DNA of 47,277 nt from a virus. Below the pieces are notes generated by a model. The model saw nothing but the letters and a program-made list of their open reading frames with translations, was not told the origin of the DNA and did no database searches. The stretch's first letter is position 1. Every line of letters begins with the position of its first letter. The DNA lies in IMG/VR virus record IMGVR_UViG_3300048837_000371, positions 1 through 47,277 of that record, one strand, 5' to 3'. Below are positions 1 to 42,805 of this stretch, in pieces. Both the position numbers and the translations under genes were made by a program.

Positions 1-127
1 TCCCGGCCTGCCGTTCGATGGCCGCTTCGAGCGCGTCAGCGGCGCCGCGATACGCGAGCGCGGCTTGCTCCGCCTCGAGCACTCCAATGCCGCTGCCGCC
101 CATCTCGGCCTGCTTGAACAGCTTGGA
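1..127. repeat. Terminal overlap: bases 1-127 are identical to 47151-47277 (circular closure / assembler k-mer overlap); unique genome length 47150 bp
   Basis: Direct comparison of the first and last lines of the window: tcccggcctgccgttcgatgg...cttgaacagcttgga is present at both ends, 127/127 identical. Confidence 0.95.
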
Positions 128-2547: not shown

Positions 2548-2558
2548 GTTCGTTTACC

Positions 2559-3248: not shown

Positions 3249-3256
3249 GTCCTACC

Positions 3257-4334: not shown

Positions 4335-6175
4335 GTGCCGGCCCCCATGTCCTGCACGTAGAGCACTGACGCGAACCACTCCCACGCCTGATTCGGCTCG
4401 AACGTGAGCCTGAAGTCGAACGAAGGGCCCGCGACCGGGAATGGCACCAGCTTGCCGGGCAGACTATCGGCGTCCATCGCGTAGTCGGCCGTGCGCGCCG
4501 CCACGTTGCGTTGGTCGTAGCCGATGCTGACGGAGACACCCTCCGGCGCATCGGCCACGAGGTCGAACCCGACGAACTGCTTTTCGGTGCCGAGCGAGCC
4601 GAGGTCCATGTGCGGCCAGTGTGCGACGCCATAGAACTCGACGCCGTACCCGAGGTAGTAGTCGTCGACCAGGAACTCCTCGGAGACGCGCCAGACCTTG
4701 TGCGTCGCCGTGCGCACGTACAGATCGTTGTCGAGCAACGTCGTGTCCGTGATCGCTTCGGGGAACACGTATCGGCTCCACTTCCCCTTCTTCCCCTCGT
4801 TCGTCGTGAGCACGAACACTTCGGGGCCGAAAATGCACCAATACTGGCCGTAGGCCGGGATGAACGTCGAGATCGGCTCGTACTCCCGAGCGCGCATCTT
4901 CGGCGTCACCAGCGGGTCGATCGGCTCGCCGGTGGAGCCCGCTTGCAGGTTGGTGCTGGCGCCCGCGATGCTGATGTTGCGGATGCCGACCGAGTTGGGG
5001 AACACAAGGTCGTTCACGAGCGGCTGCACACCGCGCGCTTCGGTGCTGCCGACAGGCGCGGCGTCGAGCAACGCCATGTTCTGCGGGTCCTGATCCACCT
5101 GCCACATCTGGTAGCCGGCAGAGTTGAACGCCACGAGGTTGCTGCGGTACAGGCCCATCGCGCTGACCGGGTTCGCGCCGTGCGTCTGCAGGCCGAACGG
5201 GAGGTACCCGGCGTCGTCCGGCGTCGACCAGTCGAGCGGGTTGTTCGTGGCGCTGTACGGGATGATGTCGTTGTCGCCAGCGAAAATCTTGCTCGCGGCG
5301 ATGGCAACCACCTTGCTGTTCGGGCAGCGCGCGTCCTTCACGCGGCGCGAAGCCGCTGTCCACACGATCGACCCGTCTACCACGGATCCGCCGACTTCGG
5401 TCGGCCACGTCGGCTCGGCAGCGCCAGACTTGAGTAGCGGCACCGCTTCCCACGTCACGCTCGAGCCATACTGCGTCGCCCACGTCACCGTGCCGTCAAC
5501 GACAGTCGAGTCCGCGGTCTGCGGCCACTCGGGCTCGGTGGAGGCGCTCACGCCATCGCCTTCCTGCACGGCGGTGTAGATGAACGTCGAGTACGCCGGG
5601 CGGTACGAGTAGTCCCACGTGAACTTGTCGACCGAGACGCGCTTGTTCTCGGTCTGGAAGCCGCTCGCGCCGATGCGCACGTAGGCTGTGCCAGCGGGCG
5701 CCGTGGCCGTCACGGTCGAAATCTTCCACGCGCCGTCGGAGCCCTTCTTGACCAGATTGCCGTCATCGACGCGCAGGCTGACCATGCTCGAGTCGAGCCA
5801 CTCGAGCTGCACCATCGCGCCGGCATTGCCCGCGGAGGCACCGCCCTGCTGGACCATGCACGAGGCCGTGATCGTCTGGTTCGGCAACGCCGCGAACGGG
5901 ACCGTAGCGTAGATACGCTTGTACACCGGGTCCGCGAGCCCGATACCTGTCTTGCGCAGCCGCGCCGAGTACGCCCCCTCGAACGCGCTGTCGTGCGTTT
6001 CAATGGCCCACGTCTGGTAGCCCGGGTCGGCGGTTTCCTTCGTCCAGTCCTGATCGCCGTCCTCGAACCCACTGTTTGCGGGGGCGGCGACGACGATCGG
6101 CGGCACCGTGGCGCGGATCACCTGCGCCCCGGGGCTGTACGTGGTCAGCGGTTGCCAAGCGGGTACGTTGGTCAT
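4331..6175 (-). CDS. Tail nozzle (tail tubular protein B-like), C-terminal ORF with carbohydrate-binding-like insert
   Basis: 614 aa; ATGA overlap with the upstream ORF at 6172-6175. The N-terminal third has a CBM4/9-like module (NSGFEDGDQDW...YVRIGASG...VSVDKFTW) and EP(T/E)WP..G..V.DG.V.W repeats. The C-terminal ~330 aa (KIFAGDNDIIPYSATNNPLDWSTPDDAGYLPFG...YQMWQVD) resemble the propeller body of T7 gp12-type nozzles. Confidence 0.6.
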   Translation of the reverse strand: MTNVPAWQPLTTYSPGAQVIRATVPPIVVAAPANSGFEDGDQDWTKETADPGYQTWAIETHDSAFEGAYSARLRKTGIGLADPVYKRIYATVPFAALPNQTITASCMVQQGGASAGNAGAMVQLEWLDSSMVSLRVDDGNLVKKGSDGAWKISTVTATAPAGTAYVRIGASGFQTENKRVSVDKFTWDYSYRPAYSTFIYTAVQEGDGVSASTEPEWPQTADSTVVDGTVTWATQYGSSVTWEAVPLLKSGAAEPTWPTEVGGSVVDGSIVWTAASRRVKDARCPNSKVVAIAASKIFAGDNDIIPYSATNNPLDWSTPDDAGYLPFGLQTHGANPVSAMGLYRSNLVAFNSAGYQMWQVDQDPQNMALLDAAPVGSTEARGVQPLVNDLVFPNSVGIRNISIAGASTNLQAGSTGEPIDPLVTPKMRAREYEPISTFIPAYGQYWCIFGPEVFVLTTNEGKKGKWSRYVFPEAITDTTLLDNDLYVRTATHKVWRVSEEFLVDDYYLGYGVEFYGVAHWPHMDLGSLGTEKQFVGFDLVADAPEGVSVSIGYDQRNVAARTADYAMDADSLPGKLVPFPVAGPSFDFRLTFEPNQAWEWFASVLYVQDMGAGT

Positions 6176-7062
6176 GGCTCGTTGTAGTTCACAGGGTTGC
6201 CGTCGCTGATGTTGCGCACGGCGGAGTAGTCATAGCGGTCAACGATCTCCGTCGTCGGCGAACTGGTCGGCGAACTGGTCGGCGGCGCGCTGCCGGCAGG
6301 CGGCGGAGGCGTGCTGTCGACCACGATCTCCTCGGATACACCAGTGTCGGTGCGCTCTGTGACGGTGCCGCCCTCGAAGGTCGGCCACGTCGGCTCCGTG
6401 GTGCCAGAGCGCGGGTTCGGGCCCTGCGTCTCGATGCACACGTAGTAGAAGCCGTTGTAAGTCGTCGGCTCGACAACGCTCTGATCGTAGGCGTCGCCGA
6501 TTCCGTCGTAGCGCGCTTCGTCCGGTTGCCACGGCGGGTACGGGTCGCCGAAGCGCGACGCCTGATACACGAGGCCGTTCGCTGTCGTGGGCTCCACGAG
6601 GTCGCCGGGGCTGTAAATCGTCTCGGCTTCCCACGTGTCGCCGGGCTGCAGCCAATAGTGGTATACCGCGCCGTCCTCGAACTCGGCAACCACGTAGAGG
6701 CCGCCGAGGAACGGCTCGGAGAAATGGATCGTCTCGAGCGGCACGCCTTCGTATGTCGAGTAGCCGATTGCGTAGCTGTACTCGTCCGGCGGGTCCGGGT
6801 GCACGAGGATGTTGAGCGTGTAGCCCGTCGGCACGACGACCGACTTGTGGCAGAACACGTGCAGCGAACCATTGAACGAGCACAGTCCGCGAGTGGCCGG
6901 GTCCAGTGTTGCAACGCGCTCAGTACCGGGGCGCACCTTGAGCGTACCGCTCTCGGTGACGTAGGCGTTCAACAGGTCGTAGAGCTGATCGTTCCGTGCT
7001 CCGCCCTTCGTGCGAAGCCGGTTGATGCCGCCGTTGACCGTTGTGAGGACGACGGGGCGCAT
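6172..7062 (-). CDS. Tail nozzle, N-terminal ORF
   Basis: 296 aa. MRPVVLTTVNGGINRLRTKGGARNDQLYDLLNAYVTESGTLKVRPG resembles the N-terminus of T7 gp12-type nozzle proteins. It is followed by W....Y.PGD.V...NG..Y (CBM5/12-like) repeats and a Ser/Thr/Pro linker. Confidence 0.55.
   Translation of the reverse strand: MRPVVLTTVNGGINRLRTKGGARNDQLYDLLNAYVTESGTLKVRPGTERVATLDPATRGLCSFNGSLHVFCHKSVVVPTGYTLNILVHPDPPDEYSYAIGYSTYEGVPLETIHFSEPFLGGLYVVAEFEDGAVYHYWLQPGDTWEAETIYSPGDLVEPTTANGLVYQASRFGDPYPPWQPDEARYDGIGDAYDQSVVEPTTYNGFYYVCIETQGPNPRSGTTEPTWPTFEGGTVTERTDTGVSEEIVVDSTPPPPAGSAPPTSSPTSSPTTEIVDRYDYSAVRNISDGNPVNYNEP
6254..6284 (-). repeat. Perfect 12-bp tandem repeat, 2.6 copies (gtcggcgaactg), in frame
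   Basis: gtcggcgaactg gtcggcgaactg gtcggcg read directly; encodes the PTSSPTSSPT part of the Ser/Thr/Pro linker of the 296-aa nozzle ORF. Confidence 0.9.
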
Positions 7063-7065
7063 GGG

Positions 7066-7782
7066 TTAGCTCACCGGCAGGAATACGGGCTTGGAGGCCG
7101 GCACTTCGGGATCCATCCCCGGCACGTAGCGCTTGGCGCCGTGCGAGTCCGCAATGATCTCCCGCAGGTACGTGTTCGCCTGCGCGGCCACGTCCGGGGC
7201 GTCCGCCTGCCGGTAGTGATTCTTCGCGTTCGCGAGCGCCCACAGGAACAGCAACTCGCTGTCGATCGTCGCGGTGTCAGTGTCCTCAGTGAAGCGCTCG
7301 AGGCCGAAGTGCCCCTTCACGCGCAGCGTGTAGGCCGCCATCGGGGCGGGGAACACTTCGATGCACTGGCGCAGCTCGAAGCGCGCCGGGAGTCCGTTGA
7401 AGTCGACCGAGGTGTAGAACTCCGGTGGGATGCCCTGCGTCAGCGGGAGCCACGTGCCGTTCAAGTCCTCGACCCACGCGCCGGTGATCTTCCCGGCGTC
7501 GAGTTTGCGCGGGCAGTCGTCGATGTTGTCGCGGATGCCGTAGAAGCGCTCCCCCACCGCCATCGTCCAGCGGTAGAAGCGCTCGGTCTGCAGCGCACGG
7601 TAGCGGCGGTACAGGAACGCCTGCCCGCGCTGCAAGAAGCTGTTGAGCAACTCGGCCATGCCCGGCGGCGGGTTATCCGCCTGCGCTGCGTACCCCAAGC
7701 GAACGAGGACGTCACGGCGCAAGTCGCCGAGCGTCTCGGCACCGTAGAACCCCTCGTCACACTCGCAGTTGAAGTTCGGCAT
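7066..7782 (-). CDS. Head-to-tail adaptor candidate (T7 gp11 position)
   Basis: 238 aa. GGGGGAGGAG RBS before ATG 7782. Lies directly downstream of a terminator and directly upstream of the nozzle ORFs. Assignment is by gene order and size only. Confidence 0.45.
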   Translation of the reverse strand: MPNFNCECDEGFYGAETLGDLRRDVLVRLGYAAQADNPPPGMAELLNSFLQRGQAFLYRRYRALQTERFYRWTMAVGERFYGIRDNIDDCPRKLDAGKITGAWVEDLNGTWLPLTQGIPPEFYTSVDFNGLPARFELRQCIEVFPAPMAAYTLRVKGHFGLERFTEDTDTATIDSELLFLWALANAKNHYRQADAPDVAAQANTYLREIIADSHGAKRYVPGMDPEVPASKPVFLPVS

Positions 7783-7802
7783 GGCGCTCTCCTCCCCCTA
7801 TC

Positions 7803-7838
7803 GTAAAAGAGGGCGGGCCAGTTTCCTAGCCCGCCCCC
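7803..7838 (-). terminator. Rho-independent terminator after the capsid gene block
   Basis: On the minus strand: GGGCGGGC-taggaaactg-GCCCGCCC followed by TCTTTTAC (8-bp GC stem 7811-7818/7829-7836). A second 8-bp hairpin cccgcacg/cgtgcggg lies just upstream at 7845-7872. The location (after coat and small head proteins) parallels the T7 terminator after gene 10. Confidence 0.7.
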
Positions 7839-7880
7839 GGCAGGCCCGCACGCCAGGAGGGTAACGTGCGGGTTCCACTC

Positions 7881-8294
7881 TCACTCGTCGATCGACGAAA
7901 CGCCGTCGCCGTCATCCGGGTCGAGATCGAGCCCAGCGAGCGGGTCGGCGTCCTCCGACGGGGCGGCGGGCGCGGGCTTAGCGGCAGCCGGCACCGAACT
8001 GCGTGTCGCCTTTGCGATTTCGGCCTGCAGTGCCGTCACGCCTCGCGCGCCGACACCGTATACCATCGCGACGTACTCCTGCCCGTTCTCCTCGTCCTTC
8101 CCGTACTTGTTCGCCAAGCGCTCGTACTCCGCCGCGGCCTCCGGCAGTTCCCGTCTCACGGGCGTCACACCCACGACAGATGTGATGTCCCCGCCGTGAA
8201 CGGCCGCCAGCACGGCGACTTCCCAAGGCGGCACCGTCACATTGGCGGTGGTGGTTTCCGAGCGCGCAATCTGGACCTGTGAATAGTCGAACAT
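7881..8294 (-). CDS. Small structural-module protein with acidic Pro/Ala-rich tail
   Basis: 137 aa. Strong AGGAGG RBS before ATG 8294. C-terminus VPAAAKPAPAAPSEDADPLAGLDLDPDDGDGVSSIDE. No recognisable family. Confidence 0.7.
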   Translation of the reverse strand: MFDYSQVQIARSETTTANVTVPPWEVAVLAAVHGGDITSVVGVTPVRRELPEAAAEYERLANKYGKDEENGQEYVAMVYGVGARGVTALQAEIAKATRSSVPAAAKPAPAAPSEDADPLAGLDLDPDDGDGVSSIDE

Positions 8295-8317
8295 GGAACA
8301 ACCCTCCTGTGGGTAGG

Positions 8318-8584
8318 TTAGTTGCCGAGCAACCAGACCGGATCGCCAGCGGCGCTGGTCCGGATGTACTGGTAGGTCGGGGTCACTTCCTGACAGCTAC
8401 CGGCGGCGCCGGCGGCGGCCAAGGTTGCGAGCGTCACGGGGCTCGTGAACGCTTCATCGACCGAGCCCTGAAGCACGCGCTGCTCCGCCGAGGTGTTGAT
8501 CGCAACGACCGTGTAGTTCGGCAGGAACGGGGCGTTCTTCGTCGCGAGGTCGATCGCGGTGTTGTTGACTTCGAGAACCTTCAT
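8318..8584 (-). CDS. Small head-module protein (possible decoration protein)
   Basis: 88 aa. GGAGAT RBS. Immediately follows the coat gene. No recognisable motif. Confidence 0.65.
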   Translation of the reverse strand: MKVLEVNNTAIDLATKNAPFLPNYTVVAINTSAEQRVLQGSVDEAFTSPVTLATLAAAGAAGSCQEVTPTYQYIRTSAAGDPVWLLGN

Positions 8585-8618
8585 GTCTGCATCTCCGAAA
8601 AGGTGGCGGTGGCCGGTG

Positions 8619-8641
8619 CCCGGGGCGGTGGCCGCCCCGGG
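8619..8641 (-). terminator. Strong GC hairpin immediately downstream of the coat gene (attenuator or RNA-stability element)
   Basis: cccggggcgg-tgg-ccgccccggg: 10-bp perfect stem with a 3-nt loop. A short CTTTTC run follows about 20 nt downstream on the minus strand, so it is not a canonical terminator. Confidence 0.4.
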
Positions 8642-8650
8642 CGTCCCGGG

Positions 8651-9703
8651 TCAGTAGATCGACAGGACGGCGTGCGCGTTGCGCTTGCCGGTGGTGAGCG
8701 CGGCCTTCGAGGTCAGCGCCCAATAGTGCACGTAACGGTCGTACACGCGAGGCGGCTTGCGCGACACCATCCAGTGCCCCTTGATCGGGCGCAGCTTCAG
8801 GAAGCTCGTGTTGATGAAGTAGCAGCGCTTCGACCACTCGACAGTCGGCGCATCCGCCGCGTCGAGGTCATCGAACACCGGGTCCCACACCAGCTCGACG
8901 CCCTTGAAGTAGACGCCACTGACCGACGCGTCCAGCCCCGTCTGGCCGTTGCCCAACGTGTTGAGGCGACGGTTCACGGTGTCGCTGGCATCCCGGCGAT
9001 ACGCGTCGAGGAAGTCGGCGCCAACCAGGATGAAGTCCGGCTTCTTGCCGCCGCGGCGGGTGCACTCGCGCCACGCGATCTCCATGCGGTCGACGAGGTT
9101 GCCCGAGGTCGCCGTGGAGATGTCGATGTCCGCGTAGTTCCTCCACCACGAATAGGTCTGCTGGTTGAGGGCGCCGATCGTCGCGCTGGCGCTCGGAGTC
9201 GTCGAGATCAGGCTGTCGAGGCCCGGGATGTCCGTCGCGGACGCCGTGCCGTCGCGGTGCAGCATGAGGTCGAAGTTCTCCTCGAAGCCCAGCTTCAGCG
9301 TCTCCATGTTCTCGGACAGGAGGTTCGTGAGCTGCACCTTCTCGGCATCGGTCGGGACGGCGTTCTTGTCGTCCGTCATGGTGATGCCGTTCTGCGCCAG
9401 CTCGTCCTCGTTCAGACCGAAGCCGTCGTGGAAACTGCCCCACGTGAACTTCGCCTGCTGCAGCGTGCGCTTGCGGTTGTAGGAAACCTGCGAGTCGCCG
9501 AAGTACGACTGGAAGTTCGAGTCGTTCTGATAGCGGAGCTGCTCGGTGACGTACTGCAGGCCGCCCGCGTAGGGCGACTTGCCGGCCGTCAGCTTCTTGA
9601 TGAGCGGGCGCTCGGTGTTGATCTGGTCGATCGGGTCGTTCTTGAGGAAGTAGTCGATCGCGTGCTTACCAGCGTAGGCAAGCTGTTCGGTATTGAAAGG
9701 CAT
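8651..9703 (-). CDS. Major capsid protein
   Basis: ATG 9703 is preceded by a GGAGAA RBS. The ORF-track start at 9748 lies 15 codons upstream without an RBS. 350 aa (MPFNTEQLAYAGKHAIDYFL...). A hairpin and then a terminator follow it. It sits in the portal-scaffold-coat order. No enzymatic motifs. Confidence 0.7.
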   Translation of the reverse strand: MPFNTEQLAYAGKHAIDYFLKNDPIDQINTERPLIKKLTAGKSPYAGGLQYVTEQLRYQNDSNFQSYFGDSQVSYNRKRTLQQAKFTWGSFHDGFGLNEDELAQNGITMTDDKNAVPTDAEKVQLTNLLSENMETLKLGFEENFDLMLHRDGTASATDIPGLDSLISTTPSASATIGALNQQTYSWWRNYADIDISTATSGNLVDRMEIAWRECTRRGGKKPDFILVGADFLDAYRRDASDTVNRRLNTLGNGQTGLDASVSGVYFKGVELVWDPVFDDLDAADAPTVEWSKRCYFINTSFLKLRPIKGHWMVSRKPPRVYDRYVHYWALTSKAALTTGKRNAHAVLSIY

Positions 9704-9838
9704 GGTCGTTCTCCAAATGACAAAGGAATTACGCTTTGCCAGGAGCAACGAGCCTGGAACTTTGCCGGTTGCGAACCCGGTCGCCCTTGCGGGTAGGGGT
9801 GCTCCCCTCGGCGCAGTTGCTTTGCGAACGGAATGAGA

Positions 9839-10624
9839 TCACGGTGCAACGAGGCTGTCAACTTTTTCTATCAGCCCCCCGCGCTCGTACAGCGCGACCT
9901 CCGCCTCGTCGGCTGGGAACACGTATCCGGCCGGTATCTCGGTGCGAGAGTGCTTGCACAGGAAGGCGCGCTTGGCGCGCACGTGCGACCACCTCATCGT
10001 CTCGTAGGGCTGCAGGCTCGTCGGCATGTGGAACGGGCCGGGCGCTTCATCCGGGCGATACGCCGGGAACAGGTTGAACAGTGCGCCGAGCGGCGGGCGG
10101 ATCATGGCGCCGGTGAGCCGCGACTGCAGCCGTTGGTAGCGGCTGCGCCAGTGGCTTTCGGATAGCCCCTTGCTGACGTTGCGATCAGCCGGAGCGTAGA
10201 AGTACGTTCCGCCCTGATAGCAGTCGAAGCCAATCGGCACTATCGGGCGACATCCGAGCAACGCTGCCAAGCCTATCGCCATCATCCCGCTGTTGCCTTG
10301 CACCGGCCACGCGCCGAGGCGGAAGTCCGCCCAATGCTGCCGGCTCACGAGCGGCACGCCGTACTTGCGCATGACGGGCTCCATCAACTCCTGCGTCTCG
10401 GTGTGGCGATGATCCTTGCACACGACGTAATGCGGACGGATGCCAAGCCGAAATGCGTGCGCGTTGGCCGAGATGATGACGGCGTTCTTCGGGAACGCTA
10501 CGAGCGCTGCGAGCTGCTCCGGCGCGCTCGGCCCGCCGCCGATCACGAGCGCCAGGCGGTCCTGCGCAGCGCGATACAGCGTCGAGACGTGGCTACCGTT
10601 CGGCACGAGTCGCGCGTCAGACAT
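9839..10624 (-). CDS. Cst-II (GT42) / Maf (DUF115)-like glycosyltransferase
   Basis: 261 aa. The start overlaps the upstream stop (ATGTCTGA). Motifs in order: LALVIGGGPSAPEQL, VIISANAHAF..GIRPHYVVCKD, NSGMMAIGLAALLGCRPIVPIGFDCYQGG. Compare my recollection of Cst-II: IAGNGPSL and GIDFYQ. Confidence 0.55.
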   Translation of the reverse strand: MSDARLVPNGSHVSTLYRAAQDRLALVIGGGPSAPEQLAALVAFPKNAVIISANAHAFRLGIRPHYVVCKDHRHTETQELMEPVMRKYGVPLVSRQHWADFRLGAWPVQGNSGMMAIGLAALLGCRPIVPIGFDCYQGGTYFYAPADRNVSKGLSESHWRSRYQRLQSRLTGAMIRPPLGALFNLFPAYRPDEAPGPFHMPTSLQPYETMRWSHVRAKRAFLCKHSRTEIPAGYVFPADEAEVALYERGGLIEKVDSLVAP

Positions 10625-11456
10625 AGTGCTTCGTGATCCAGGGCGACATTGCGTGCGCCCGTGGATCCCAAGGCTTGTACTCGCCTGCGAATATCACGAC
10701 GCGAGAACCCTTCGGCAGAGCCCCCGGCGGGTCGTAAACCGGGGCGGCGGCTTTCGGTTGGCCGGAACCGTGGGTTACGACTGACCGCCGCGATCCGTGC
10801 GTCTGGTGCTCGCGGCGGCGACGGGGCTTCCGATATGCGCGGTACGCGCGGTGCGACGGATGGTTTGCGATCATATGCAGATACGCATGTACGCCATCCG
10901 CGTTCGTCCACGTCGCGGCGTCCGGCGACAGGCAGTATCGGATCCACGCCTGGTCCGAGCCACGCATCCCGGCCCTGGTGGTGAGTTCTGGTGAGCGCAC
11001 GGGGTCGAACTCGCTCCAGACCTTCTCGCGGCTGCCGGCAGTCTGGAGGAACATCGAGCCGTTGTAGTGATCGTCGCCGCGCGCGTCGTAGATGATGAAG
11101 TCGTCCGGCCGACGCCACAGCGGCGCCACGTCGTCAACGAGCACCATATCGAGGTCGAGCGACACGAAGCGGCGACCAAACACCTTCTCCATCTCGCCCG
11201 AGAACAGTTTGAGCCGCGGGTAGCAATTCGGCCTTGATGTCGGGTGCGACGGATTCACTAAATCGAAGTGGTCCGGCCACAGGGGGACGTACTCGATAGC
11301 CGGGTCGAGGCCGGTCGGATCGTCCGTCACGCAGAAAAAGCGGTGCGGATGGTTGTAGCACCGCGCCACCATGCGCCGCAACGTGTTGACGTGCTCGGCA
11401 GAGTACGCCGTCCGATAGGTCGGCTTGACGTACTTGAACGTGATGACGGAAATCAT
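10617..11456 (-). CDS. GT-A type (DXD) glycosyltransferase
   Basis: ATG 11456 overlaps the stop of the MTase gene (ATGA); the ORF-track start at 11549 is further upstream. 279 aa. FFCVTDD, CYPRLKLFS, FVSLDLDMVLVDDV (DXD) and YNGSMFL are typical of GT8/GT32-like nucleotide-sugar transferases. Confidence 0.6.
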   Translation of the reverse strand: MISVITFKYVKPTYRTAYSAEHVNTLRRMVARCYNHPHRFFCVTDDPTGLDPAIEYVPLWPDHFDLVNPSHPTSRPNCYPRLKLFSGEMEKVFGRRFVSLDLDMVLVDDVAPLWRRPDDFIIYDARGDDHYNGSMFLQTAGSREKVWSEFDPVRSPELTTRAGMRGSDQAWIRYCLSPDAATWTNADGVHAYLHMIANHPSHRAYRAYRKPRRRREHQTHGSRRSVVTHGSGQPKAAAPVYDPPGALPKGSRVVIFAGEYKPWDPRAHAMSPWITKHYV

Positions 11457-12142
11457 GTTGGCAGCAGGAAGGCCACTGCGACATCCGGCAGCGGGCGTTC
11501 TATGCGGACTAGCAGACCCTCCTTCACATGGCGCATCACCGCCTCCCACGGTCCCGTGATCGTGTCGAGCCCGGGCTGTAGCTTGAACCCAGGGGGTTGC
11601 ATATCATCCAGGAACATGAACCCCCCGTCGTTTATCCGGGCGAGCGACAAAGGAATCTCGGCGTACACCCCGCGCGGATCATGCCAGCCGTCGATCGAAA
11701 CGAAGTCGAACTTCTGCCAGGTGTGCTTCAGGTACTCCACGGAGTCCTGCGTCACGAACTCCACCCGGTCGAGCACGCCCGCGGCCTCGAGCATTTCGCG
11801 CGGGGATTGCGGCCGCTCGCGTAGGCGCCAATGGGAGTCCGGTGCGTCGTTGGCGTCCCTGATGTCCACCGTCACGACCTTGCCATCCGGACCTACGGCG
11901 AGCGCATAGGCGAGCGCGCTGGTGCCAAGGAAGGTGCCGATGTCTAGTACCGTCTTGCACCCCGCGGCGCGGATTACCTTGAACAGCATTTCGCGCGTGT
12001 CAATGCCCATCGCACACGACACACCGCGCACGCCGAGTCGATCAATGACGGAGAGGGCCTCGCGCCACTGCGCGTCGAGTTCAGGATCCGTTTCCCAGTC
12101 AGGAAGGGCGCCGCGGAGGTGCCCAGTCGCGATAACAGACAT
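11453..12142 (-). CDS. Class I SAM-dependent methyltransferase (O-MTase family 3 / Methyltransf_24-like)
   Basis: 229 aa from ATG 12142. Motif I VLDIGTFLGTSALAYA, VVTVDI, and FDFVSIDGWH (post-II acidic motif). Confidence 0.7.
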   Translation of the reverse strand: MSVIATGHLRGALPDWETDPELDAQWREALSVIDRLGVRGVSCAMGIDTREMLFKVIRAAGCKTVLDIGTFLGTSALAYALAVGPDGKVVTVDIRDANDAPDSHWRLRERPQSPREMLEAAGVLDRVEFVTQDSVEYLKHTWQKFDFVSIDGWHDPRGVYAEIPLSLARINDGGFMFLDDMQPPGFKLQPGLDTITGPWEAVMRHVKEGLLVRIERPLPDVAVAFLLPT

Positions 12143-12350
12143 TTTCAGGCTCCGGGTAGAGGGCCTCGCGCGCCTTCGCTTCGAGGATTGCGGTTGCAAT
12201 GCAGTGATCGACCTCGTGCGGGTGGAGCCAGTCGACGAAGGCTGCCAGCCGCTTGAACCTGCCGTTCGACACGTTACGACCGAGGAACCCCGAGATAGTC
12301 TCGCGCGGCATCGTATCGAACGGCCACAGCAAAAGGGCGCACCACAGCAT
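12099..12350 (-). CDS. Small hypothetical protein with hydrophobic N-terminus
   Basis: 83 aa from ATG 12350, 9 nt after the ATP-grasp stop: MLWCALLLWPFDTMPRETISGFLGR...HPHEVDHC. It fills the 217-nt space between the ATP-grasp and MTase genes. The start is uncertain (ORF-track start 12437). It overlaps the MTase start by 44 nt. Confidence 0.45.
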   Translation of the reverse strand: MLWCALLLWPFDTMPRETISGFLGRNVSNGRFKRLAAFVDWLHPHEVDHCIATAILEAKAREALYPEPENVCYRDWAPPRRPS

Positions 12351-12358
12351 GTTGAGTG

Positions 12359-13309
12359 CTAGGCGAACGTGGTAGGCGATTCTGCACGCGCGTCGGTCCA
12401 TGTCCCAGCCTCGTATTCGTCGAACATCAGGTCCCACAGTTCAGCCCACTTGCGCGTCGTCGGTCCAAAGAACTGCGCCTCCATGCAGTTTCCTGGCGAC
12501 GGCCAAGGCCATCCGAGGCTGGTCTCTAGCAGTTTCCATGAGCCCCCGTAGCGTAGAATGTCGAGGGCGCACCACCTTGTTCCTATCGCCTCGAACACCT
12601 CGTCAGCGAAGTCTAGGAGACTGGTGGTGGTCTCGTCCAGCGCAGTTACCCCATCCACATTGCCGGTCTGCGCGACGTGCGTTCCGGGGGCGTTATATCG
12701 CTTGAAGATGGCGCGACCGCGGCCGATGATGTTGACGCGCCACGTTATGTCGTGCTGGACATACTCCTGCAGAAGCACATAGCCGCGCTGCCGCGACTTC
12801 GCCTGCTCCCCTGCACGACCGCCCGCGCAGTGGTCGACCTCGATGCCTCGCCCGAATATCTGCCGGCAGTGCTCGATCAGTTCCCGGCGTGTGCGCAGGA
12901 TGCGGACATTCTTGCTGCTTGCGCCAACGTCGGCCTTCGACACGATCCAGCGGCCCTCGATCGGAAAGTGCCGCGCGAACTGCAGCGCGTTGTCCAGCTT
13001 CTCGAAGCGCCAGGTCTGCGGCATCCACTTCGCCCACCGGAAGAACTGCGCGCTCTTGTCGTCGTAGACCTCGACCTGCGCGTAGTCCTGCACCATCGTC
13101 AGGTGCTCGGCCATCTGCACCCAGTCGAGATGGTTGCGGTCGAGGATCGCCGGGATGGCGTGCGGGCGGATGAAGCCGAGCCCGCTCCGCCCACGCGCCT
13201 GCCCCCCTCGTGTGATGCGCTTCGCGTCGTACCCGCGGCGCACGGCCGTCTCGATAGCGGGGCCGTGCCAGTTGCCCCGCTCGTCTAGGATCGTGAATTG
13301 CGGTGCCAC
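12359..13309 (-). CDS. ATP-grasp family ligase
   Basis: GTG 13309 is preceded by AAGGAG at 5-nt spacing; the ORF-track start at 13384 lacks an RBS. 316 aa. WIVSKADVGASSKNVRIL (ATP-binding Lys region), YVLLQEYVQHDITWRVNIIG, WCALDIL...KLLETS (Mg-binding acidic residues) follow ATP-grasp order. Confidence 0.65.
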   Translation of the reverse strand: MAPQFTILDERGNWHGPAIETAVRRGYDAKRITRGGQARGRSGLGFIRPHAIPAILDRNHLDWVQMAEHLTMVQDYAQVEVYDDKSAQFFRWAKWMPQTWRFEKLDNALQFARHFPIEGRWIVSKADVGASSKNVRILRTRRELIEHCRQIFGRGIEVDHCAGGRAGEQAKSRQRGYVLLQEYVQHDITWRVNIIGRGRAIFKRYNAPGTHVAQTGNVDGVTALDETTTSLLDFADEVFEAIGTRWCALDILRYGGSWKLLETSLGWPWPSPGNCMEAQFFGPTTRKWAELWDLMFDEYEAGTWTDARAESPTTFA

Positions 13310-13542
13310 TTGCGCTCCTTGGGCTGCAGTTTCCCGGGCCTGCGCGCAGCGAACAGCGCAATCGGCGCCGCGGAAAAGTCCCACGAGTAGTCTATTGGAT
13401 TCTCGAGCGACTTGAGGTGCCTGGCGATGGCGCGTTCACGCTCTTTGCCGTGCAAAACGCGCCCGACGACGGGAATTCCCAATTCCGCTTCAGGGGCAAC
13501 CGAAGGGGCTGCAACCTCGCCGTCGCCGGGCGCGCGATCCAC
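13285..13542 (-). CDS. Possible 85-aa ORF between scaffold and ATP-grasp genes
   Basis: GTG at 13542 starts 1 nt after the scaffold TAA and is in frame with ORF-track entry 13285..13752. By my count about three quarters of its third codon positions are G or C. No motif. The stretch could instead be non-coding spacer. Confidence 0.3.
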   Translation of the reverse strand: MDRAPGDGEVAAPSVAPEAELGIPVVGRVLHGKERERAIARHLKSLENPIDYSWDFSAAPIALFAARRPGKLQPKERKWHRNSRS

Positions 13543-13543
13543 G

Positions 13544-14719
13544 TTACCGGCTCGCCGCGGTAATGCCTGCGCTGACCGCATCGAGCAAGTTCTTCGGCTC
13601 CGGGCGCGCGCCGCCAGCGGGTTGCTGTGCGCGCAGAGGGGTGTTGCCGCCCCCGCCGCCGGTCGCTGGTGCTCGCGGTGTCGGAGTGGGTGTGGGCACG
13701 CTCGGTGCGGCGGGGACGGCGAGTTCATTATACGCCCGTCGGAACGTCGCAACCCACTCGCGCGGAGGAATCGTAGCGAACACGGGTTTCAAAGTTTTGA
13801 CGAGGATCGCCTTTTTCGTCGGGTATGCCGGATCCCGCATAAGCTGCTGCTCGAGCGCCGTGAGCCCGGCCCTCGCGGACGCAATCTCGCGCTGCGTCTC
13901 GGCCGTCACGCGCTGCTGCTCGGCGGTCATCTGCGTCCTGCGCTGCTGGAAGTTCCGCGCCTCGCGCGAGGCCGCGATCTCCTGCGCATCTTCGATCGAC
14001 AGCTTGCCGGCGCCGACTTTCTGGATCAGGTCGTCATGGCCCTCGAGCATATTCACGCCCGGGACCGGCTTGCCGATCATCTTCGCAATCGAGATCGTCT
14101 CGCGCTGCAGGAACTCGAGGAGCTGTTCCTTGTCCTCGCGCGCATCGCTGTTCACGAGTCGCAGGTAGTCGAGCGCCTGCGCATACTGCTCAGGCGTCGC
14201 GTTGGTCTGCTTGATCTCGTGCATGATGAACGAGTAGTTGCTCTCGACGGTCTTGAGCTTCTCGTCCTTCTCCTGGACCATGCCGATCAGCGTCTTGATG
14301 CGCTCCTTCGTCTCGCGCTTGAGCGCGTTCGGGAGCGGATCATTCAGCGGATCAGGTTCCTTCGCTCCGGCGGCAGGAGGCGTGTCACCGTCGCCGTCCA
14401 CAGGCTTATCCTTGCCGTCGTCAGCTCCAGGATCAGCGCCCTCGCCATCGCCTTCGCCCTCAGCGCCCTCGGTACCGGCCGCTTCGCCAGCCGGTGCGCC
14501 ATCATCTGCGCCCTCGCCTCCTGCAGCCGTTGCCGGTGCACTGCCCCCTCCATCAGCGCCGTCCACAGCCGGAGCTGCATCTGTTGGAGTAGCAGGTTGC
14601 GCATCGTCGGTGCCTCCTGTAGCAGCCGGGGGCGGGGTGGGGTCGGCGGCCGGCGGCGATGACGCCTCGGCGATACCGGAACTGATGGCGGCCAACAGGC
14701 CCTCGTTCTCTCCTGACAT
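13544..14719 (-). CDS. Scaffolding protein
   Basis: 391 aa. AGGAGG RBS. About 130 aa of acidic Ala/Gly/Asp/Pro low-complexity sequence is followed by a long helical, charged region. Lies directly after the portal gene. Confidence 0.6.
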   Translation of the reverse strand: MSGENEGLLAAISSGIAEASSPPAADPTPPPAATGGTDDAQPATPTDAAPAVDGADGGGSAPATAAGGEGADDGAPAGEAAGTEGAEGEGDGEGADPGADDGKDKPVDGDGDTPPAAGAKEPDPLNDPLPNALKRETKERIKTLIGMVQEKDEKLKTVESNYSFIMHEIKQTNATPEQYAQALDYLRLVNSDAREDKEQLLEFLQRETISIAKMIGKPVPGVNMLEGHDDLIQKVGAGKLSIEDAQEIAASREARNFQQRRTQMTAEQQRVTAETQREIASARAGLTALEQQLMRDPAYPTKKAILVKTLKPVFATIPPREWVATFRRAYNELAVPAAPSVPTPTPTPRAPATGGGGGNTPLRAQQPAGGARPEPKNLLDAVSAGITAASR

Positions 14720-14731
14720 GGGATCCTCCTG

Positions 14732-16948
14732 TTACATCAACGGCGGCTCGAGCGCGGGTGCGTCGAGCATTGGCGGTTCACTGACGGATGGCGCAACGCC
14801 CGGGACGCCGCCCGCGGCCGAATCGCCCGGCACCGGGGGCGGCATACCGCCCGCGGCCGGATCGCCCGGCACGGCGCCCGGGGCGCCGGGCATCGGCGGT
14901 AGCGCCGGCGGGGCCATCGGCGTCGCGATTTGCGGCAGGAAGCGGCTCGGGTCGGACTCGTCGCCCATGCGAACCATCGTTTCCTTGACCAGCTCCGAGA
15001 GCGCCTTGACGGTGTTGACGTCGCCCATCGCGGCGGCCTGCATGAGCTGGACGAGCGTTTCCTTGATCGTGGGGAGAATGACCGCCCACGCTTCCTTGTC
15101 GCCCGCGGCCTTCGGCTTGCCGGTCGTACCGGCCTCAATGTTGATCTCGACCATCGTGAGGAGGTCGTCGATTGCCATGCCGTGCGGCCAGAACGCCTTG
15201 GAGCCCGCGATGCGCTGTGCGTCGTTCCCGTCGAGCGCCTGGATGGCAAGCTCGGCGGTGTACTGCGCGAGGTCGTTCATCATCGTTTCGATGACATCGC
15301 GGTCAGCCGTCGTGCGCGAGGCGAAGCCGGACTGCTGAATCTCGGCCTCCGTCGCCGTTTTCGGCGCCGTCGAGGACTGCTGCAGCGCTTCCTGCACGCC
15401 GCTGATGCGCTCCATGTCGGCGAGGATCTGCGTCGTGTCGAACAGGCGCATATCGCCGACGGCGATCGGCTTCTCGGTGAACAGGTCGCGGAGCGGCTGT
15501 TCGGGGTTCGTCGGGTCGATGCCGACGAACTCCTGATGCACGCTCGTCTCGATGCGACGGGCATCTTCGGGCTTGACGCCCGACTTGTTGAAGATCGTCC
15601 CGGGCACCGCGCGCTGACGCGTCAGGCGCATGGACGAGCGGGCCGAGCAATACTCGTCCATCAGCTTCATCAGGCGCCACGGGAGCGACTGCGGGTGCCG
15701 CGTGCCGTCGACCGGGTAGAAGCCGATCGCGAAGTACGGGTAGAAGCGGCTCGAGGCGTAGTCGGGCTGGTACGGCTTCTTCGCCCAGCGCTTCACGCCG
15801 TCGATCATGGTGTGCACGTGGCCGGTGCGCTTGTTCCACAGCTCGACCACCTTGGCGTGCGGCAGGCCCTTGTTCCCGTCGTCGCCCGTGCCGGAGGTGT
15901 ACTGCTCGGCCTCCTCCGCGTGCGCATCGCCGTCGGCCATGCCGGTGAGCTTCACGCGCTCCGATAGCGGCTCGAGTTCGCGGGTAGCGCGCTGGTAGTA
16001 GTGCTTGGCCGCCTTCACGTCCTCCTCGGCCAAGTCGGGGAACATCGCGCGCAGCTCGGAGACGGGACGGTAGATCGCGTTCGCGTTCCACCCGGCGTCC
16101 TTGTGGTCGAGCACGTTGCGCACGTCGAGCGACACCTGCATGTCCTCGGGCGAAACGAAGTCGATCGCGAGGCACTTGCGCATCGCGACCTCGAGGCGGT
16201 TCGCCACGCTGTCCTCGAGTTCGCGCAGCTTCAACATCTCGGCGTCGTACTTCTCCGGCTCCATGCGCTCGGTCGAGTACGGCTCGGCGGGTTCGACCGG
16301 CTCCATGCCAGGCACTTCGAGCCCGGGGTCGGCGGCCGGGTCGAGCCCGTTCTGCGCCTCGGTCTGCTCCTGCATCTTGCGGCGCTGGTCCTCGAGCCGC
16401 TTGATGTTGTCGCGCACGTCGTCCAGCTCGCTCTTGAGCTGGGGGATGTTGGCGCCGTTCGACACCATGATGACCTTGAGCCAGCCGACGCCGGTGGTCA
16501 GGGTCGAGCGCACCTGCTCGCGGGCACGCGTCTTGAGCGCCGTCTGCGGGCGCTTCCACAGCGCCGAGACGATGAGCTGCATCGTCTTGGCGAAGTCGTC
16601 CTCACCCTGCGTGCCGGTGTTGTCAACGCGCGGCGCTTTCTTCGCCGACACGTCCGGGTTGCGGGCGTAGAGGAACGACACGAGGATGTCGATGAAGGCG
16701 CCGATCAGGTTCGCGCTCACTGCCCAATCGAGGTTCGCGGTGCCGGCGGCGTAGCGCCGGTCGACGGCGTACTGCGCGCGGATGGTCTTGTCGAACTCGC
16801 GCGCCTGCTCGTACTCCTTCCACAGCGCGCTGACCTCGTGCTCCTCCTTGAGCTTCTCGGCCGCCTTCTGCTCGTCGAGGTCCGCGTTGTCGGCGGCCTG
16901 CACGCCCTGCTCGACGACTTCGAGCATCTCCGGGTTGTTCGGGTCCAC
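14732..16948 (-). CDS. Portal protein
   Basis: 738 aa. GTG start with a GAGGT RBS, 11 nt after the terL stop. Size and the terL-portal-scaffold order are typical. Confidence 0.75.
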   Translation of the reverse strand: MDPNNPEMLEVVEQGVQAADNADLDEQKAAEKLKEEHEVSALWKEYEQAREFDKTIRAQYAVDRRYAAGTANLDWAVSANLIGAFIDILVSFLYARNPDVSAKKAPRVDNTGTQGEDDFAKTMQLIVSALWKRPQTALKTRAREQVRSTLTTGVGWLKVIMVSNGANIPQLKSELDDVRDNIKRLEDQRRKMQEQTEAQNGLDPAADPGLEVPGMEPVEPAEPYSTERMEPEKYDAEMLKLRELEDSVANRLEVAMRKCLAIDFVSPEDMQVSLDVRNVLDHKDAGWNANAIYRPVSELRAMFPDLAEEDVKAAKHYYQRATRELEPLSERVKLTGMADGDAHAEEAEQYTSGTGDDGNKGLPHAKVVELWNKRTGHVHTMIDGVKRWAKKPYQPDYASSRFYPYFAIGFYPVDGTRHPQSLPWRLMKLMDEYCSARSSMRLTRQRAVPGTIFNKSGVKPEDARRIETSVHQEFVGIDPTNPEQPLRDLFTEKPIAVGDMRLFDTTQILADMERISGVQEALQQSSTAPKTATEAEIQQSGFASRTTADRDVIETMMNDLAQYTAELAIQALDGNDAQRIAGSKAFWPHGMAIDDLLTMVEINIEAGTTGKPKAAGDKEAWAVILPTIKETLVQLMQAAAMGDVNTVKALSELVKETMVRMGDESDPSRFLPQIATPMAPPALPPMPGAPGAVPGDPAAGGMPPPVPGDSAAGGVPGVAPSVSEPPMLDAPALEPPLM

Positions 16949-16958
16949 TAGCGGTACC

Positions 16959-18632
16959 TCACGAGTATCTCGGGGTCATGGGTCGGTGATCCTCAACGGT
17001 TTCCAGCCAGGCCGCGGTGAACGGCTTGAGCTGCGGGCGCGTCTCCTCCGACGGCACGTGGGGCGACATCATTACATCAAGCCCGCGGCCTAGCAAGCCG
17101 CACACGTCCGCGGCGTCGTCGTAGCGCCCGGTCGGGAAGGCGCAGAGCTGGTCGACGAGGCGGTTGGCCCACGGGCGGCGGAGGGGGAGGTGGACGAGGC
17201 CCTGCGCGGCATACCACTGGAAGGCGCCGAGTTTGATGGCCTTGTTCTTGATCGAGGTGAGCGGGTCGATCGAGACGAACACGCGCGGATCGTGCTCCGA
17301 CATGGCCTTCTTGATCGACGGGCTCAGGGCGTTGTCGATCGGCCCGCCCTCGTTCCACCACTTGCGCGGCGCCCAGCGGTGCACGAGCGAGGTGAAGGCG
17401 TCGATCGACACGTCGGTGGTTTTCTGGCCGAACCACCAGTCGAGGAAGTACATCGGCGAGACTAAGGTCTTTTTCCCGTCACGGATGACCTCGATGTTCG
17501 CCGGGGCGACGCCCACGACGCCGTGCTCTGTGAAGTCGCCCTTGTCCTCCTTAGTCGCGTAGTCCGAGGCGCCGTACACGGTGATGTTGGTCGGCCGCCC
17601 GCCGGGCGTCCCGGGCGGCACGTCGGGGTCGTACCACTTGAACCATTCGCGCTTGAACTCGATGCCCTCGAGCGCCGACGGCCGCTGCTGGAACAGCGCG
17701 TTCCACGTGCGCACGGCGCGCGGGTTGTGCTCCCACTGCGCCCAATGCTCGCGCGGAAACCACTCCGGCCACAGGTACTCACCCGCCTTGCGGCCGAGCG
17801 GGTCGGTGGCGGCCTGTGCGTCGTCCTCCACCTTCGCGCGCAGGTTGAGCACGGTCCACCACTGGCCGTCGCGGCAGAGGATGCGACCTGAGCTGCCGTC
17901 GTAGTCCTCCGGCAAGATGCGCCCGGCGAGGTCGTCCTCGTGCCAGCGGGTCTGGATCACGATGATCCAGCCGCCCGGCAGGAGTCGGGTGGTCGCCGAG
18001 TCCATGAACTCGTCGTAGACCTTGTTGCGGATCGTCTCGGAGTCGGCCTCCTCGCGACCCTTGATCGGGTCGTCGATCAGCAGTCCGTTCGCGCGGTTGC
18101 CTGTGATGCCGGAGAGGAGGCCGGCAGCCATGAACTCCGAGCCGTTCGCCAAGCCCCACTGATGAACGGCGCGCTGGTCGCTCGCCAGGATCGGGATCGG
18201 GTCCTTGTGCGACCAGATGGAGAGGTGCTCCTTGGAGCGGCACAGCGCGCGGGCCTTGCGCGACTGTTTGTTCGCGATTTCCTGCGCGTAAGAGCCGAGG
18301 ATGATGCGGTACCCGTCGAGCCTCGAGAGGAGGTGCGCCGGGCTCACGACCGAGGTGTAGGACGACTTCGCCGAGCCCGGCGGCGCGAACATCAGCAAGC
18401 GGCCGAACGGCGTGAACACCGTTTTCTCGATGTGCTCGAGGATCAGGCGGTGGTGGAGCGCGAGGCTCGTTTCCACCGACTTGAAGTGCTCCGTCTCCGG
18501 ATCGGCGACAGCCGGAGCACCCGGGATGTTCACGGAGCGCGCGTATTCCACCAATGAGGCTCGCGCCCGCTGTCGCCGTAGCAACTCGAGTGCGGCCGCG
18601 CGCTGTGTGACATCCCCTCCCGTCGTGCTCAC
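16959..18632 (-). CDS. terL: Terminase large subunit
   Basis: 557 aa. P-loop-like FAPPGSAKSS, Walker B GLLIDDP, IVIQTRWHEDDLAGRI, and a C-terminal nuclease half (VYGASDYATKEDKGDFTEHGVVG). Confidence 0.9.
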   Translation of the reverse strand: MSTTGGDVTQRAAALELLRRQRARASLVEYARSVNIPGAPAVADPETEHFKSVETSLALHHRLILEHIEKTVFTPFGRLLMFAPPGSAKSSYTSVVSPAHLLSRLDGYRIILGSYAQEIANKQSRKARALCRSKEHLSIWSHKDPIPILASDQRAVHQWGLANGSEFMAAGLLSGITGNRANGLLIDDPIKGREEADSETIRNKVYDEFMDSATTRLLPGGWIIVIQTRWHEDDLAGRILPEDYDGSSGRILCRDGQWWTVLNLRAKVEDDAQAATDPLGRKAGEYLWPEWFPREHWAQWEHNPRAVRTWNALFQQRPSALEGIEFKREWFKWYDPDVPPGTPGGRPTNITVYGASDYATKEDKGDFTEHGVVGVAPANIEVIRDGKKTLVSPMYFLDWWFGQKTTDVSIDAFTSLVHRWAPRKWWNEGGPIDNALSPSIKKAMSEHDPRVFVSIDPLTSIKNKAIKLGAFQWYAAQGLVHLPLRRPWANRLVDQLCAFPTGRYDDAADVCGLLGRGLDVMMSPHVPSEETRPQLKPFTAAWLETVEDHRPMTPRYS

Positions 18633-18685
18633 CGCGTATCGCGCCTCGATTACGAACCGTTAAGCAAAAATTGAGCGTGCTGCGC

Positions 18686-34885: not shown

Positions 34886-35063
34886 TTACTACCAGCGCGA
34901 CGTGCGTGTCGACCCCGATACGTTCGTCGGGCTGCGCAAAGAGGATGTCGTCGAGTGGCCGCCGATCGCCGTGAGTGAGCAGCGCATCTCGACCGACGTG
35001 TTTGAGACCCTGCAGGCTGAGTGGTTGGAATCCATAAGGAGGAGCAATGCTGCCGACCGATGA
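34875..35063 (+). CDS. Hypothetical protein
   Basis: 62 aa from ATG 34875 (AGAGG RBS). Confidence 0.5.
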   Translation: MPRDYYQRDVRVDPDTFVGLRKEDVVEWPPIAVSEQRISTDVFETLQAEWLESIRRSNAADR

Positions 35064-36512: not shown

Positions 36513-36594
36513 ACGTTCAACCCCTTGAGCGGCGACGGCCGCTGCTTGTCTGGTTTGCGGAACAAGGAAAGCACCCAGTCGATGACGGCGCGGA

Positions 36595-42803: not shown

Positions 42804-42805
42804 GG

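Follow-up and report, generated by a model that had tools for sequence, protein, structure and literature searches.

We analysed a 47,277-nucleotide stretch of viral DNA (IMG/VR record IMGVR_UViG_3300048837_000371, positions 1 to 47,277; hereafter the window), in which a cassette of five minus-strand genes lies between a scaffold-position gene and the gene for the major capsid protein (MCP). Three of these genes, encoding an ATP-grasp ligase, a small conserved protein and a glycosyltransferase (GT), form a fixed unit that recurs across phages, and this is our main new result. The other two encode an MptE/Maf-like transferase and a methyltransferase (MT). The cassette very probably builds and tailors glycans. 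Synteny and analogy with known systems suggest, at roughly even chances, that the acceptors are the phage's own virion proteins; this choice of acceptor is the main weakness of our interpretation.

The linkage of the three genes was determined on unique loci that were ascertained via the ATP-grasp gene alone and had enough flanking sequence. A GT gene of the window family was found on the same strand, at most 3.5 kb from the ATP-grasp gene, in all 34 loci. The small protein gene was next to the ATP-grasp gene, between it and the GT gene, in 33 of the 34. An MptE-like gene was present in 19 of 20 ATP-grasp loci. Among the loci with both flanks, 19 of 20 sit among recognised virion genes, 13 of the HK97-siphophage type and six of the podophage type. 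Homologues of the ATP-grasp ligase with 52-59% identity occur in HK97-type siphophage contigs, together with an S78 protease, a PF05065 capsid protein, a portal, head-closure and gp10-like genes, a tail tube and a tape measure. Two loci of this type read MptE-like, ATP-grasp, small protein, GT, GT (L037) and MptE-like, ATP-grasp, small protein, MT, GT (L039).

In an exhaustive profile search, the ATP-grasp family came to at least 861 clusters (50% identity). Among the top 150 of these 861, at least 11 carry the ATP-grasp and a window-family GT in a single chain, in both domain orders. Adjacency in 34 of 34 loci, these fusions and the precedent of Campylobacter jejuni Cj1438 (see below) argue that the ATP-grasp ligase and the GT are functionally coupled. 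Other fusions include P0391, in which an FkbM methyltransferase is joined to the ATP-grasp, and P0437 (1632 amino acids, aa), which combines an ATP-binding cassette (ABC) transporter ATPase, tetratricopeptide (TPR) repeats and a GT4 with a C-terminal ATP-grasp-family domain. A search of 185,579 species genomes gave one match to the ATP-grasp family, on a phage-like contig of a Burkholderiaceae metagenome-assembled genome (MAG) that is related to the window phage. No match was found by tblastn in 50,697 deposited phage genomes, and no cultured phage has the gene. Judged from these searches, the family is essentially phage-restricted. The one relative binned with the Burkholderiaceae MAG is a weak sign that the host of the window phage is probably a high-GC proteobacterium.

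The GT family is larger, with at least 1,216 clusters at 90% identity and 344 IMG/VR loci, some of which have no ATP-grasp gene. Islands without ATP-grasp are bigger and contain GT2, GT-D, GT8-like, FkbM and Methyltransf_23/24 genes. These sibling islands are a glycan toolkit. They fall immediately after capsid or decoration genes and before head-completion genes, for instance in a Gp13-like siphophage (L041) and a lambda-like phage (L042). In Tetraselmis viridis virus S20 (L314, NC_020840.1), a 5.5-kb island (4125-9708) extends from the capsid-region genes to head-closure Hc1 and includes two "alpha-2,3-sialyltransferase" (MptE-like) genes, one methyltransferase and two GTs, one of them 37% identical to the window GT. 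S20 is an isolated tailed phage that was deposited as an algal virus, and it is the most accessible experimental model. We also observed that most, though not all, module-bearing HK97-type contigs encode a collagen-like protein (GxDGxDG repeat) right after the portal (e.g. L037 6561-7505).

The ATP-grasp gene (12359..13309, minus strand; 316 aa) starts at GTG 13309, with AAGGAG ahead of it at 13320-13315. ATP-grasp enzymes turn a carboxylate into an acyl-phosphate, which they then ligate to a nucleophile. The protein had no match in Pfam (TupA-like family included), PHROG or NCBIfam, or in the PDB when searched as a single sequence. Single-sequence PDB searches were likewise uninformative for the GT and the Maf-like protein, so that family profiles and structure models were required, and NCBIfam had no match for those two proteins or for the small protein either. 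A profile of 29 family members gave six best PDB matches that were all ATP-grasp enzymes, in alignments spanning the ATP-binding lysine (K125). Foldseek searches with an AlphaFold2 (AF2) model (pLDDT 89.5, pTM 0.88) returned 300 PDB matches at E<=1e-3; the best 50 of these 300 were all ATP-grasp-fold enzymes and included ArgX, LysX, RimK, Ddl, CPS, synapsin, PurD and inositol-phosphate kinases. ArgX, LysX and RimK scored best (E 4e-10 to 1e-8, TMt 0.64-0.74), at 12-17% identity. A first-pass annotation, made without database searches, had named this gene an ATP-grasp ligase, and the three-domain ATP-grasp fold seen by AF2 and Foldseek, with which the family profile agrees, bears this out. Invariant K125 aligns with the lysine of the VVKP motif of Ddl and with PurD. 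By motif position, invariant D250 and E262 fit Mg2+ ligands, and the usual third ligand, an asparagine, is an invariant S264. Remote family members P0407 and P0412 match the Pfam RimK domain (PF08443) at ~1e-7, while the window protein does not. A structure search of BFVD with the model returned solely remote viral ATP-grasp proteins, with identities of at most 16%.

The GT (10617..11456, minus strand) is glycogenin-like, with a GT8-like GT-A fold. It matches phrog_1962 (glycosyltransferase, E 2.7e-9), and the top 19 PDB matches of the family profile are all glycogenin (E ~0.01, 133 columns), covering the DLD, GSDQ and F.G..KPW motifs. D101 and D103, which form the DXD motif D101-L-D103, are invariant, as is S167-D168-Q169; D101-L-D103 and G166-S-D-Q169 align with DAD and GGDQ of glycogenin. 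These motifs and matches agree with the earlier description of a DXD glycosyltransferase. Resemblance to glycogenin and other GT8 enzymes extends to the DXD, GxDQ and G..KPW motifs over 133 residues, whereas the E-value is only ~0.01, Pfam GT8 scores are below threshold and the metal-binding histidine differs. In the C-terminal motif, G258 and P262-W263 are kept, and the GT8 metal-binding (Mn) histidine of H.F.G is valine or isoleucine in the family consensus. Weak matches to Pfam Glyco_transf_8 (PF01501) were seen in 11 of 38 members (best E 0.0018); the window GT gives none, and no member of the 38 reaches the Pfam threshold. Glycogenin and the Skp1 galactosyltransferase, which was also matched by the GT profile, glycosylate proteins.

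The MT (11453..12142, minus strand) is a class I S-adenosylmethionine (SAM)-dependent enzyme of the Methyltransf_24/O-methyltransferase type, as had been proposed. Both PF13578 (E 1.6e-14, 55.1 bits, cutoff 26.3) and PF01596 (E 2.6e-12, 46.9 bits, cutoff 22) score above gathering thresholds. Its start is most likely ATG 12142, with GGAG upstream, so that it overlaps the small protein gene by 44 nt. The MT is an optional component of the cassette.

The fifth enzyme (9839..10624, minus strand; 261 aa) is a nucleotide-dependent transferase of the MptE/DUF115 fold, with a Maf/Cst-II-like core and a private C-terminal domain. It matches PF01973 (E 3.9e-10, 40.2 bits, cutoff 34.6), which is also the precomputed assignment of most of its homologues, and phrog_4603. 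The best Foldseek matches of its AF2 model (pLDDT 90.2) are Maf (5mu5, 1.2e-4), Cst-II (4.6e-4) and an archaeal MptE hydroxymethyl-pterin pyrophosphokinase (HPPK, 1.2e-3). The family profile aligns with the CMP-binding elements of Cst-II, namely GGGPS, and NSG...D.YQ..TYF against SG...DFYQ..SYAF. The Cst-II/Maf-like fold that had been assigned is therefore well founded in the PF01973 score and the Foldseek ranking. "Nonulosonate-type transferase", the name given to the protein in the first-pass annotation, is too specific. No histidine is invariant in the region expected for Cst-II His188, a position extrapolated beyond the aligned stretch, where W159 is invariant and R162 nearly so. The structural TM to Cst-II is 0.45-0.47, and the Maf match aligns 185 columns with a TMt of 0.16. 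The window protein shares the fold with Maf and Cst-II, and both sides are cytoplasmic. However, the solved Maf chain has 632 residues with flanking domains, which the 261-aa window protein does not have. In Maf, these domains bind flagellin. The comparison with flagellin or pilin O-glycosylation islands holds in that the transferase is accompanied by a methyltransferase and an amide-forming enzyme in both. It fails as a nonulosonate island, as no pse, leg or neu synthesis genes or CMP-activation genes were found in the open reading frames (ORFs) scanned with Pfam and PHROGs, a set that leaves out some small ORFs.

The small protein, previously listed as an 83-aa protein, is encoded at 12099..12401 (minus strand). 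The gene stands, but its length changes: the start is most probably ATG 12401, because the family core extends upstream of the earlier start and GAGG lies 8 nt upstream, giving a protein of 100 aa (MDRRACRIAYHV...). From this start the gene overlaps the 3' end of the ATP-grasp gene by 43 nt. The protein matches phrog_3342 (function unknown, E 4e-4), and Pfam and NCBIfam searches were empty. An alignment of 48 distinct homologues shows an N-terminal hydrophobic helix followed by PRETxSGxxGR, HC and E..AR..L.YP motifs, which are invariant (the last of them as E..AR..L.Y). Many homologues stop 0-2 residues past the conserved L-Y-P motif. Tail lengths vary, and the tail in the window arises from the overlap with the MT gene. 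We searched the ATP-grasp-GT fusion proteins for the small-protein motif and did not find it, which indicates that the small protein is not an obligatory domain. Its loss in the fusions would fit a role as a coupling subunit for separate enzymes.

The interval between the scaffold and MCP genes is a cargo hot spot, and the cassette is an accessory module within it. At the DNA level, none of the 50,697 deposited phage genomes matched the region. By MCP, the isolates that come closest are Microcystis phage Mae-Yong1326-1 and Rhizobium phage RHph_N65 (MCPs 27-29% identical); both have terL, portal, scaffold-position gene and MCP with nothing intervening. We compared the interval in 34 IMG/VR relatives with MCP identities of 53-88%. 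The closest relatives (L003-L010 and L040) carry the ATP-grasp, small protein, GT and Maf-like genes and are missing the MT. All five genes are found in L014, and the four without MT are reordered as GT, ATP-grasp, small protein and Maf-like in L159-L161. The Maf-like gene is the only cassette gene, alongside small unrelated ORFs, in L016, L018-L020 and L034, and the small protein gene occurs with an HExxH gene in L024 and L027. Unrelated small genes fill the interval in L011-L013, L023, L025, L026, L028 and L033. In L032, the interval is just 149 nt and scaffold and MCP are adjacent.

With adjacent scaffold and MCP genes in the nearest isolates and L032, and zero, one, four or five cassette genes in the relatives, these are not ordinary conserved morphogenesis genes. 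The first-pass annotation saw an inserted module. This is right as to its accessory nature; a recent, one-off insertion it is not. The module is old and widely shared, since the ATP-grasp ligase is still 52-59% identical in siphophage-type contigs.

Two other protein types were noted at the hot spot. A 95-180-aa HExxH (zinc-metallopeptidase-like) protein often fills it in relatives without the ATP-grasp/GT core (L023 9587-9877; L025 2488-3030; L026 9347-9829; L028 2430-2936; L024 7297-7827; L027 6199-6729; L018 5779-6240; L020 8779-9063), and some of these still have a Maf-like or small-protein gene. A protein of ~110-150 aa with a conserved YPYGL motif is found there in other cassette-less relatives (L011 9494-9823; L012 3099-3440; L013 3196-3549; L033 9367-9819).

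The window is a complete phage genome of ~47,150 bp with a GC content of ~66%, circular or terminally redundant, as nucleotides 1-127 recur exactly at 47151-47277. The repeat makes the two minus-strand arms, 1-19249 and 36201-47253, parts of a single continuous late region. Its gene order is terL (16959-18632), portal (14732-16948), scaffold (13544..14719), the five cassette genes, MCP (8651..9703) and further virion genes, with all named genes on the minus strand. The scaffold-position gene (391 aa), the upstream boundary of the cassette, has long Ala/Pro/Gly-rich ends. At least 30 IMG/VR relatives have a homologue of it between portal and MCP. It had no match in Pfam and PHROG scans; its position suggests the scaffold function. 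The MCP (350 aa), the downstream boundary and one candidate acceptor, matches phrog_9953 (major head protein, E 4e-35).

As first described, the five same-strand genes that separate scaffold and MCP overlap or abut. ATGA at 11456-11453 joins the MT stop to the GT start, and ATGTCTGA at 10624-10617 joins the GT stop to the Maf-like start, both exactly as quoted before. The flanking gaps, 13310-13543 (234 nt) and 9704-9838 (135 nt), are indeed larger than any other in the structural arm, where 98 nt comes next. The cassette genes are real and not chance ORFs, because each has many homologues (427 homologue clusters for the ATP-grasp, 1216 for the GT and 50 for the Maf-like protein, with E-values down to 1e-219). 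Their GC content at third codon positions (GC3) is 0.76-0.83, against 0.85-0.93 in terL, portal, MCP and most neighbouring structural genes; it is also low in the low-complexity scaffold (0.75) and in g137 (0.80).

The non-coding spacer between cassette and MCP start (9704..9838, minus strand) holds small GC hairpins and the MCP ribosome-binding site GGAG (9714-9711). It folds no better than its shuffles (z = -0.7), and we claim no structured element there. The upstream gap contains a long GC-rich hairpin (CGCGCGCCCGGCGACGG...CCGTCGTCGGGCGCG) with a stem of ~16 bp followed by UUUU (13454..13536, minus strand), 8 nt after the scaffold stop. Its minimum free energy is -70.2 kcal/mol (z = -2.9), and 2 of 200 shuffles fold equally well; a simple terminator scan did not pick it out. 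The hairpin is terminator- or attenuator-like and could keep the cassette less expressed than the scaffold. The scaffold and ATP-grasp matches are only 0-14 nt apart in some relatives (L006, L007 and L008).

Two known systems bear on the function of the cassette. In cluster O mycobacteriophages such as Corndog, an MT and three GTs are reported to modify capsid as well as tail tube (Freeman et al. 2023, as summarised in PMC11600133). The Corndog gene order, which we confirmed, is portal (gp34), MT (gp35), gp36-38, protease (gp39) and capsid (gp41). In both Corndog and the window, a methyltransferase of the Methyltransf_24 clan and GT-type genes are wedged into the head-gene block. Corndog has several GT-A glycosyltransferases, and its cassette is phage-encoded, late and cytoplasmic, as in the window. 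In contrast, Corndog has no ATP-grasp, small partner protein or MptE/Maf-like enzyme, all three of which are in the window, and its host is an actinobacterium. Modification has been demonstrated in Corndog, whereas for the window it is a prediction.

The second system is Cj1438 of C. jejuni, in which a GT2 domain is joined to a TupA-like ATP-grasp that amidates the C6 carboxylate of glucuronic acid (GlcA) after sugar transfer (PMC11800397, PMC11800379). Coupling of a GT to an ATP-grasp ligase is common to Cj1438 and the phage family, where it takes the form of adjacency and the at least 11 fusions. They differ in the enzymes, as the phage GT is GT8-like and not GT2, and the phage ATP-grasp is structurally nearest to ArgX, LysX and RimK and has no Pfam match to the TupA-like family. 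They may also differ in the acceptor, which for Cj1438 is a lipid-anchored capsule. We found no description in the literature of the window enzyme set, or of DUF115/Maf proteins, in phages.

Decoration of virion proteins is indirectly favoured by the recurrence of the core module in head/connector blocks of unrelated phages and by the equivalent position of the Corndog cassette. The module would be cytoplasmic, be expressed with the late head genes and act during head assembly. By reading the translations, we saw no obvious N-terminal hydrophobic, signal-like segment in the four enzymes, which fits action in the compartment of virion assembly. The GT, if retaining like glycogenin, may take a sugar from a nucleotide-sugar of the host and place it on a head or fibre protein, at Ser, Thr or Tyr, or on a sugar already there. 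The ATP-grasp ligase would activate a carboxylate as acyl-phosphate and close an amide; the likeliest carboxylate, by comparison with Cj1438, is on the transferred acidic sugar. The MptE/Maf-like enzyme could add a second nucleotide-activated sugar, the MT could cap a hydroxyl, and the small protein may serve as a subunit for coupling or targeting. What we establish here are the four enzyme folds, the linkage of the genes, their repeated embedding in head/connector blocks and the fact that the cassette is accessory; the chemistry of each step, the donor sugars and the virion acceptor are inferred.

Several observations weigh against virion proteins as the acceptor. The Corndog enzymes have no detectable homology to those of the window (hhalign <1% for the GT family against gp36 and gp38; BLASTP E = 1.8 for the MT against gp35). 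No nucleotide-sugar synthesis genes were found among the window ORFs scanned, so that the host would have to supply every donor. Cassette expression may be low, given the terminator-like hairpin ahead of it. Our computational attempts to pin down an acceptor came up empty. The gene after the MCP, compared in L003-L036, exists in two mutually exclusive forms, neither of which tracks the cassette: a g88-type gene (8318-8584 in the window; 80-115 aa, ending in ...LLGN) and a form of ~180-195 aa (MTILLPG...FKWRFNMAKTAAGT...). We rejected g88 as the acceptor, as g88-like genes are also present in cassette-less L028 and L033. Another candidate is a 290-aa protein (44233-45105, minus strand) whose collagen-like repeat, (GPT)x15, runs without a break (Pfam Collagen, E 9e-6; NCBIfam collagen-like adhesin Lcl, E 1e-12). 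In BclA of Bacillus, GPT repeats carry heavy O-glycosylation. The role of the 290-aa protein as an acceptor is speculative, and collagen-like genes of the (GPT)n type are frequent among viral contigs (at least 120 unrelated ones with (GPT)6-coding DNA) and not enriched with the module. The N-domain of this protein has a single relative in IMG/VR, and loci reached through the "DNA transfer protein" are mostly from other phages, the genomes being mosaic.

Two further points against virion decoration, the P0437 fusion and the hydrophobic helix of the small protein, also speak for a specific alternative, namely that the enzymes remodel a host envelope glycan late in infection (lipopolysaccharide (LPS) O-antigen, capsule or another lipid-linked polymer), with virion proteins not the acceptor. 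The phage might, for example, hide receptors on debris and lysing cells in this way, or prevent superinfection. In the cellular-type homologue P0437, the ATP-grasp is combined with an ABC-transporter ATPase, TPR repeats and a GT4, an architecture typical of surface-polysaccharide pathways, and this fusion points towards lipid-linked surface polysaccharide chemistry. The hydrophobic, possibly membrane-spanning helix of the small protein points the same way and could anchor the enzymes at the membrane. Some GT8 enzymes are LPS transferases. The nearest biochemical precedent, Cj1438, works on capsule (PMC11800397). However, the module is fixed in head/connector blocks of several unrelated lineages and not at typical conversion-gene sites, and the scanned part of the window ORFs includes no integrase or repressor. 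Near absence of the ATP-grasp family from the 185,579 bacterial genomes implies that it is uncommon in prophages, and late co-expression with capsid genes would leave little time for envelope turnover. We consider envelope remodelling unlikely.

Ligation to protein or peptide is less probable still. Here the ATP-grasp would work like RimK, LysX and ArgX and attach amino acids to the carboxylate of a protein, or it would cross-link a peptide; the small protein would be the carrier or substrate, and the sugar enzymes would be tailoring or unrelated. These three ligases of protein C-termini are the best structural matches, remote family members match the Pfam RimK domain, translation of the small gene is coupled to that of the ATP-grasp gene, and many small-protein homologues end 0-2 residues after L-Y-P. 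Yet ArgX, LysX and RimK are generic best matches for a compact ATP-grasp (TM 0.6-0.7, 12-17% identity), and the end of the small protein is variable, the window tail being created by the MT overlap. ATP-grasp-GT fusions occur without the small-protein motif, L024 and L027 have the small-protein homologue without an ATP-grasp, and it is the GT that is the invariant partner of the ATP-grasp. Least probable of all, to the point that we give it little weight, is hypermodification of phage DNA, in which the MptE-like enzyme, acting as a pyrophosphokinase, would activate a hydroxymethyl base for the addition of a sugar or amine by GT and ATP-grasp before packaging. The MptE fold does include HPPK, the third-best structural match, and other phages have late-acting DNA modification. 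Nevertheless, the ORFs scanned contained neither a dUMP/dCMP hydroxymethylase nor any other gene for base synthesis, the module sits among head/connector and not replication genes, the Cst-II-type CMP-binding motifs are conserved, and the GT2, GT-D and FkbM genes of sibling islands are typical of glycans.

Some further genes of the window deserve mention. Near the (GPT)15 gene, 42806-43543 (minus strand) encodes a Laminin_G_3/ConA-like lectin-fold protein, and both are probably fibre proteins. The protein g296 (6172-7062, minus strand) has a Ser/Thr/Pro-rich linker (STPPPPAGSAPPTSSPTSSPTTE) near its C-terminus, a type of segment that is often O-glycosylated, and a repeated motif (phrog_20658, "head decoration") is common to g296 and the downstream 614-aa tail-fibre-like protein (4331-6175, minus strand). 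A 107-aa ORF (35047-35370, plus strand) matches the dATP/dGTP diphosphohydrolase N-terminal domain (PF18909, E 5e-12), a domain known to occur in Z-genome (2-aminoadenine) phages; the window ORFs scanned showed no PurZ-like gene.

To our knowledge, experiments have so far demonstrated phage-encoded virion glycosylation in no more than a few actinobacteriophages, and in these it changes recognition by antibodies. Virion glycosylation by phages is thus known already; the enzyme set described here is new, as appears to be its breadth across virion architectures. We tentatively suggest, while leaning slightly against it, that decoration of virion proteins by this cassette represents a widespread, unrecognised phage system that puts an amidated acidic glycan on head proteins in phages of Gram-negative hosts, as a second, independently evolved virion glycosylation. 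It would consist of the ATP-grasp, the small protein and the glycogenin-like GT, together with the MptE-like enzyme and with or without the MT, in at least two unrelated virion architectures. From the obligatory pairing of GT and ATP-grasp, a sugar decorated with an amide is predicted, which would be unusual chemistry. Of the five families, three (the ATP-grasp, the small protein and the GT) have no Pfam or NCBIfam model, and defining them would improve the annotation of many metagenomic phages. The change in antibody recognition that virion glycosylation brings about matters for phage therapy. If the module does act in this way, virion glycosylation would be far more widespread than is known, would rely on another set of enzymes and would extend to phages that infect proteobacteria.

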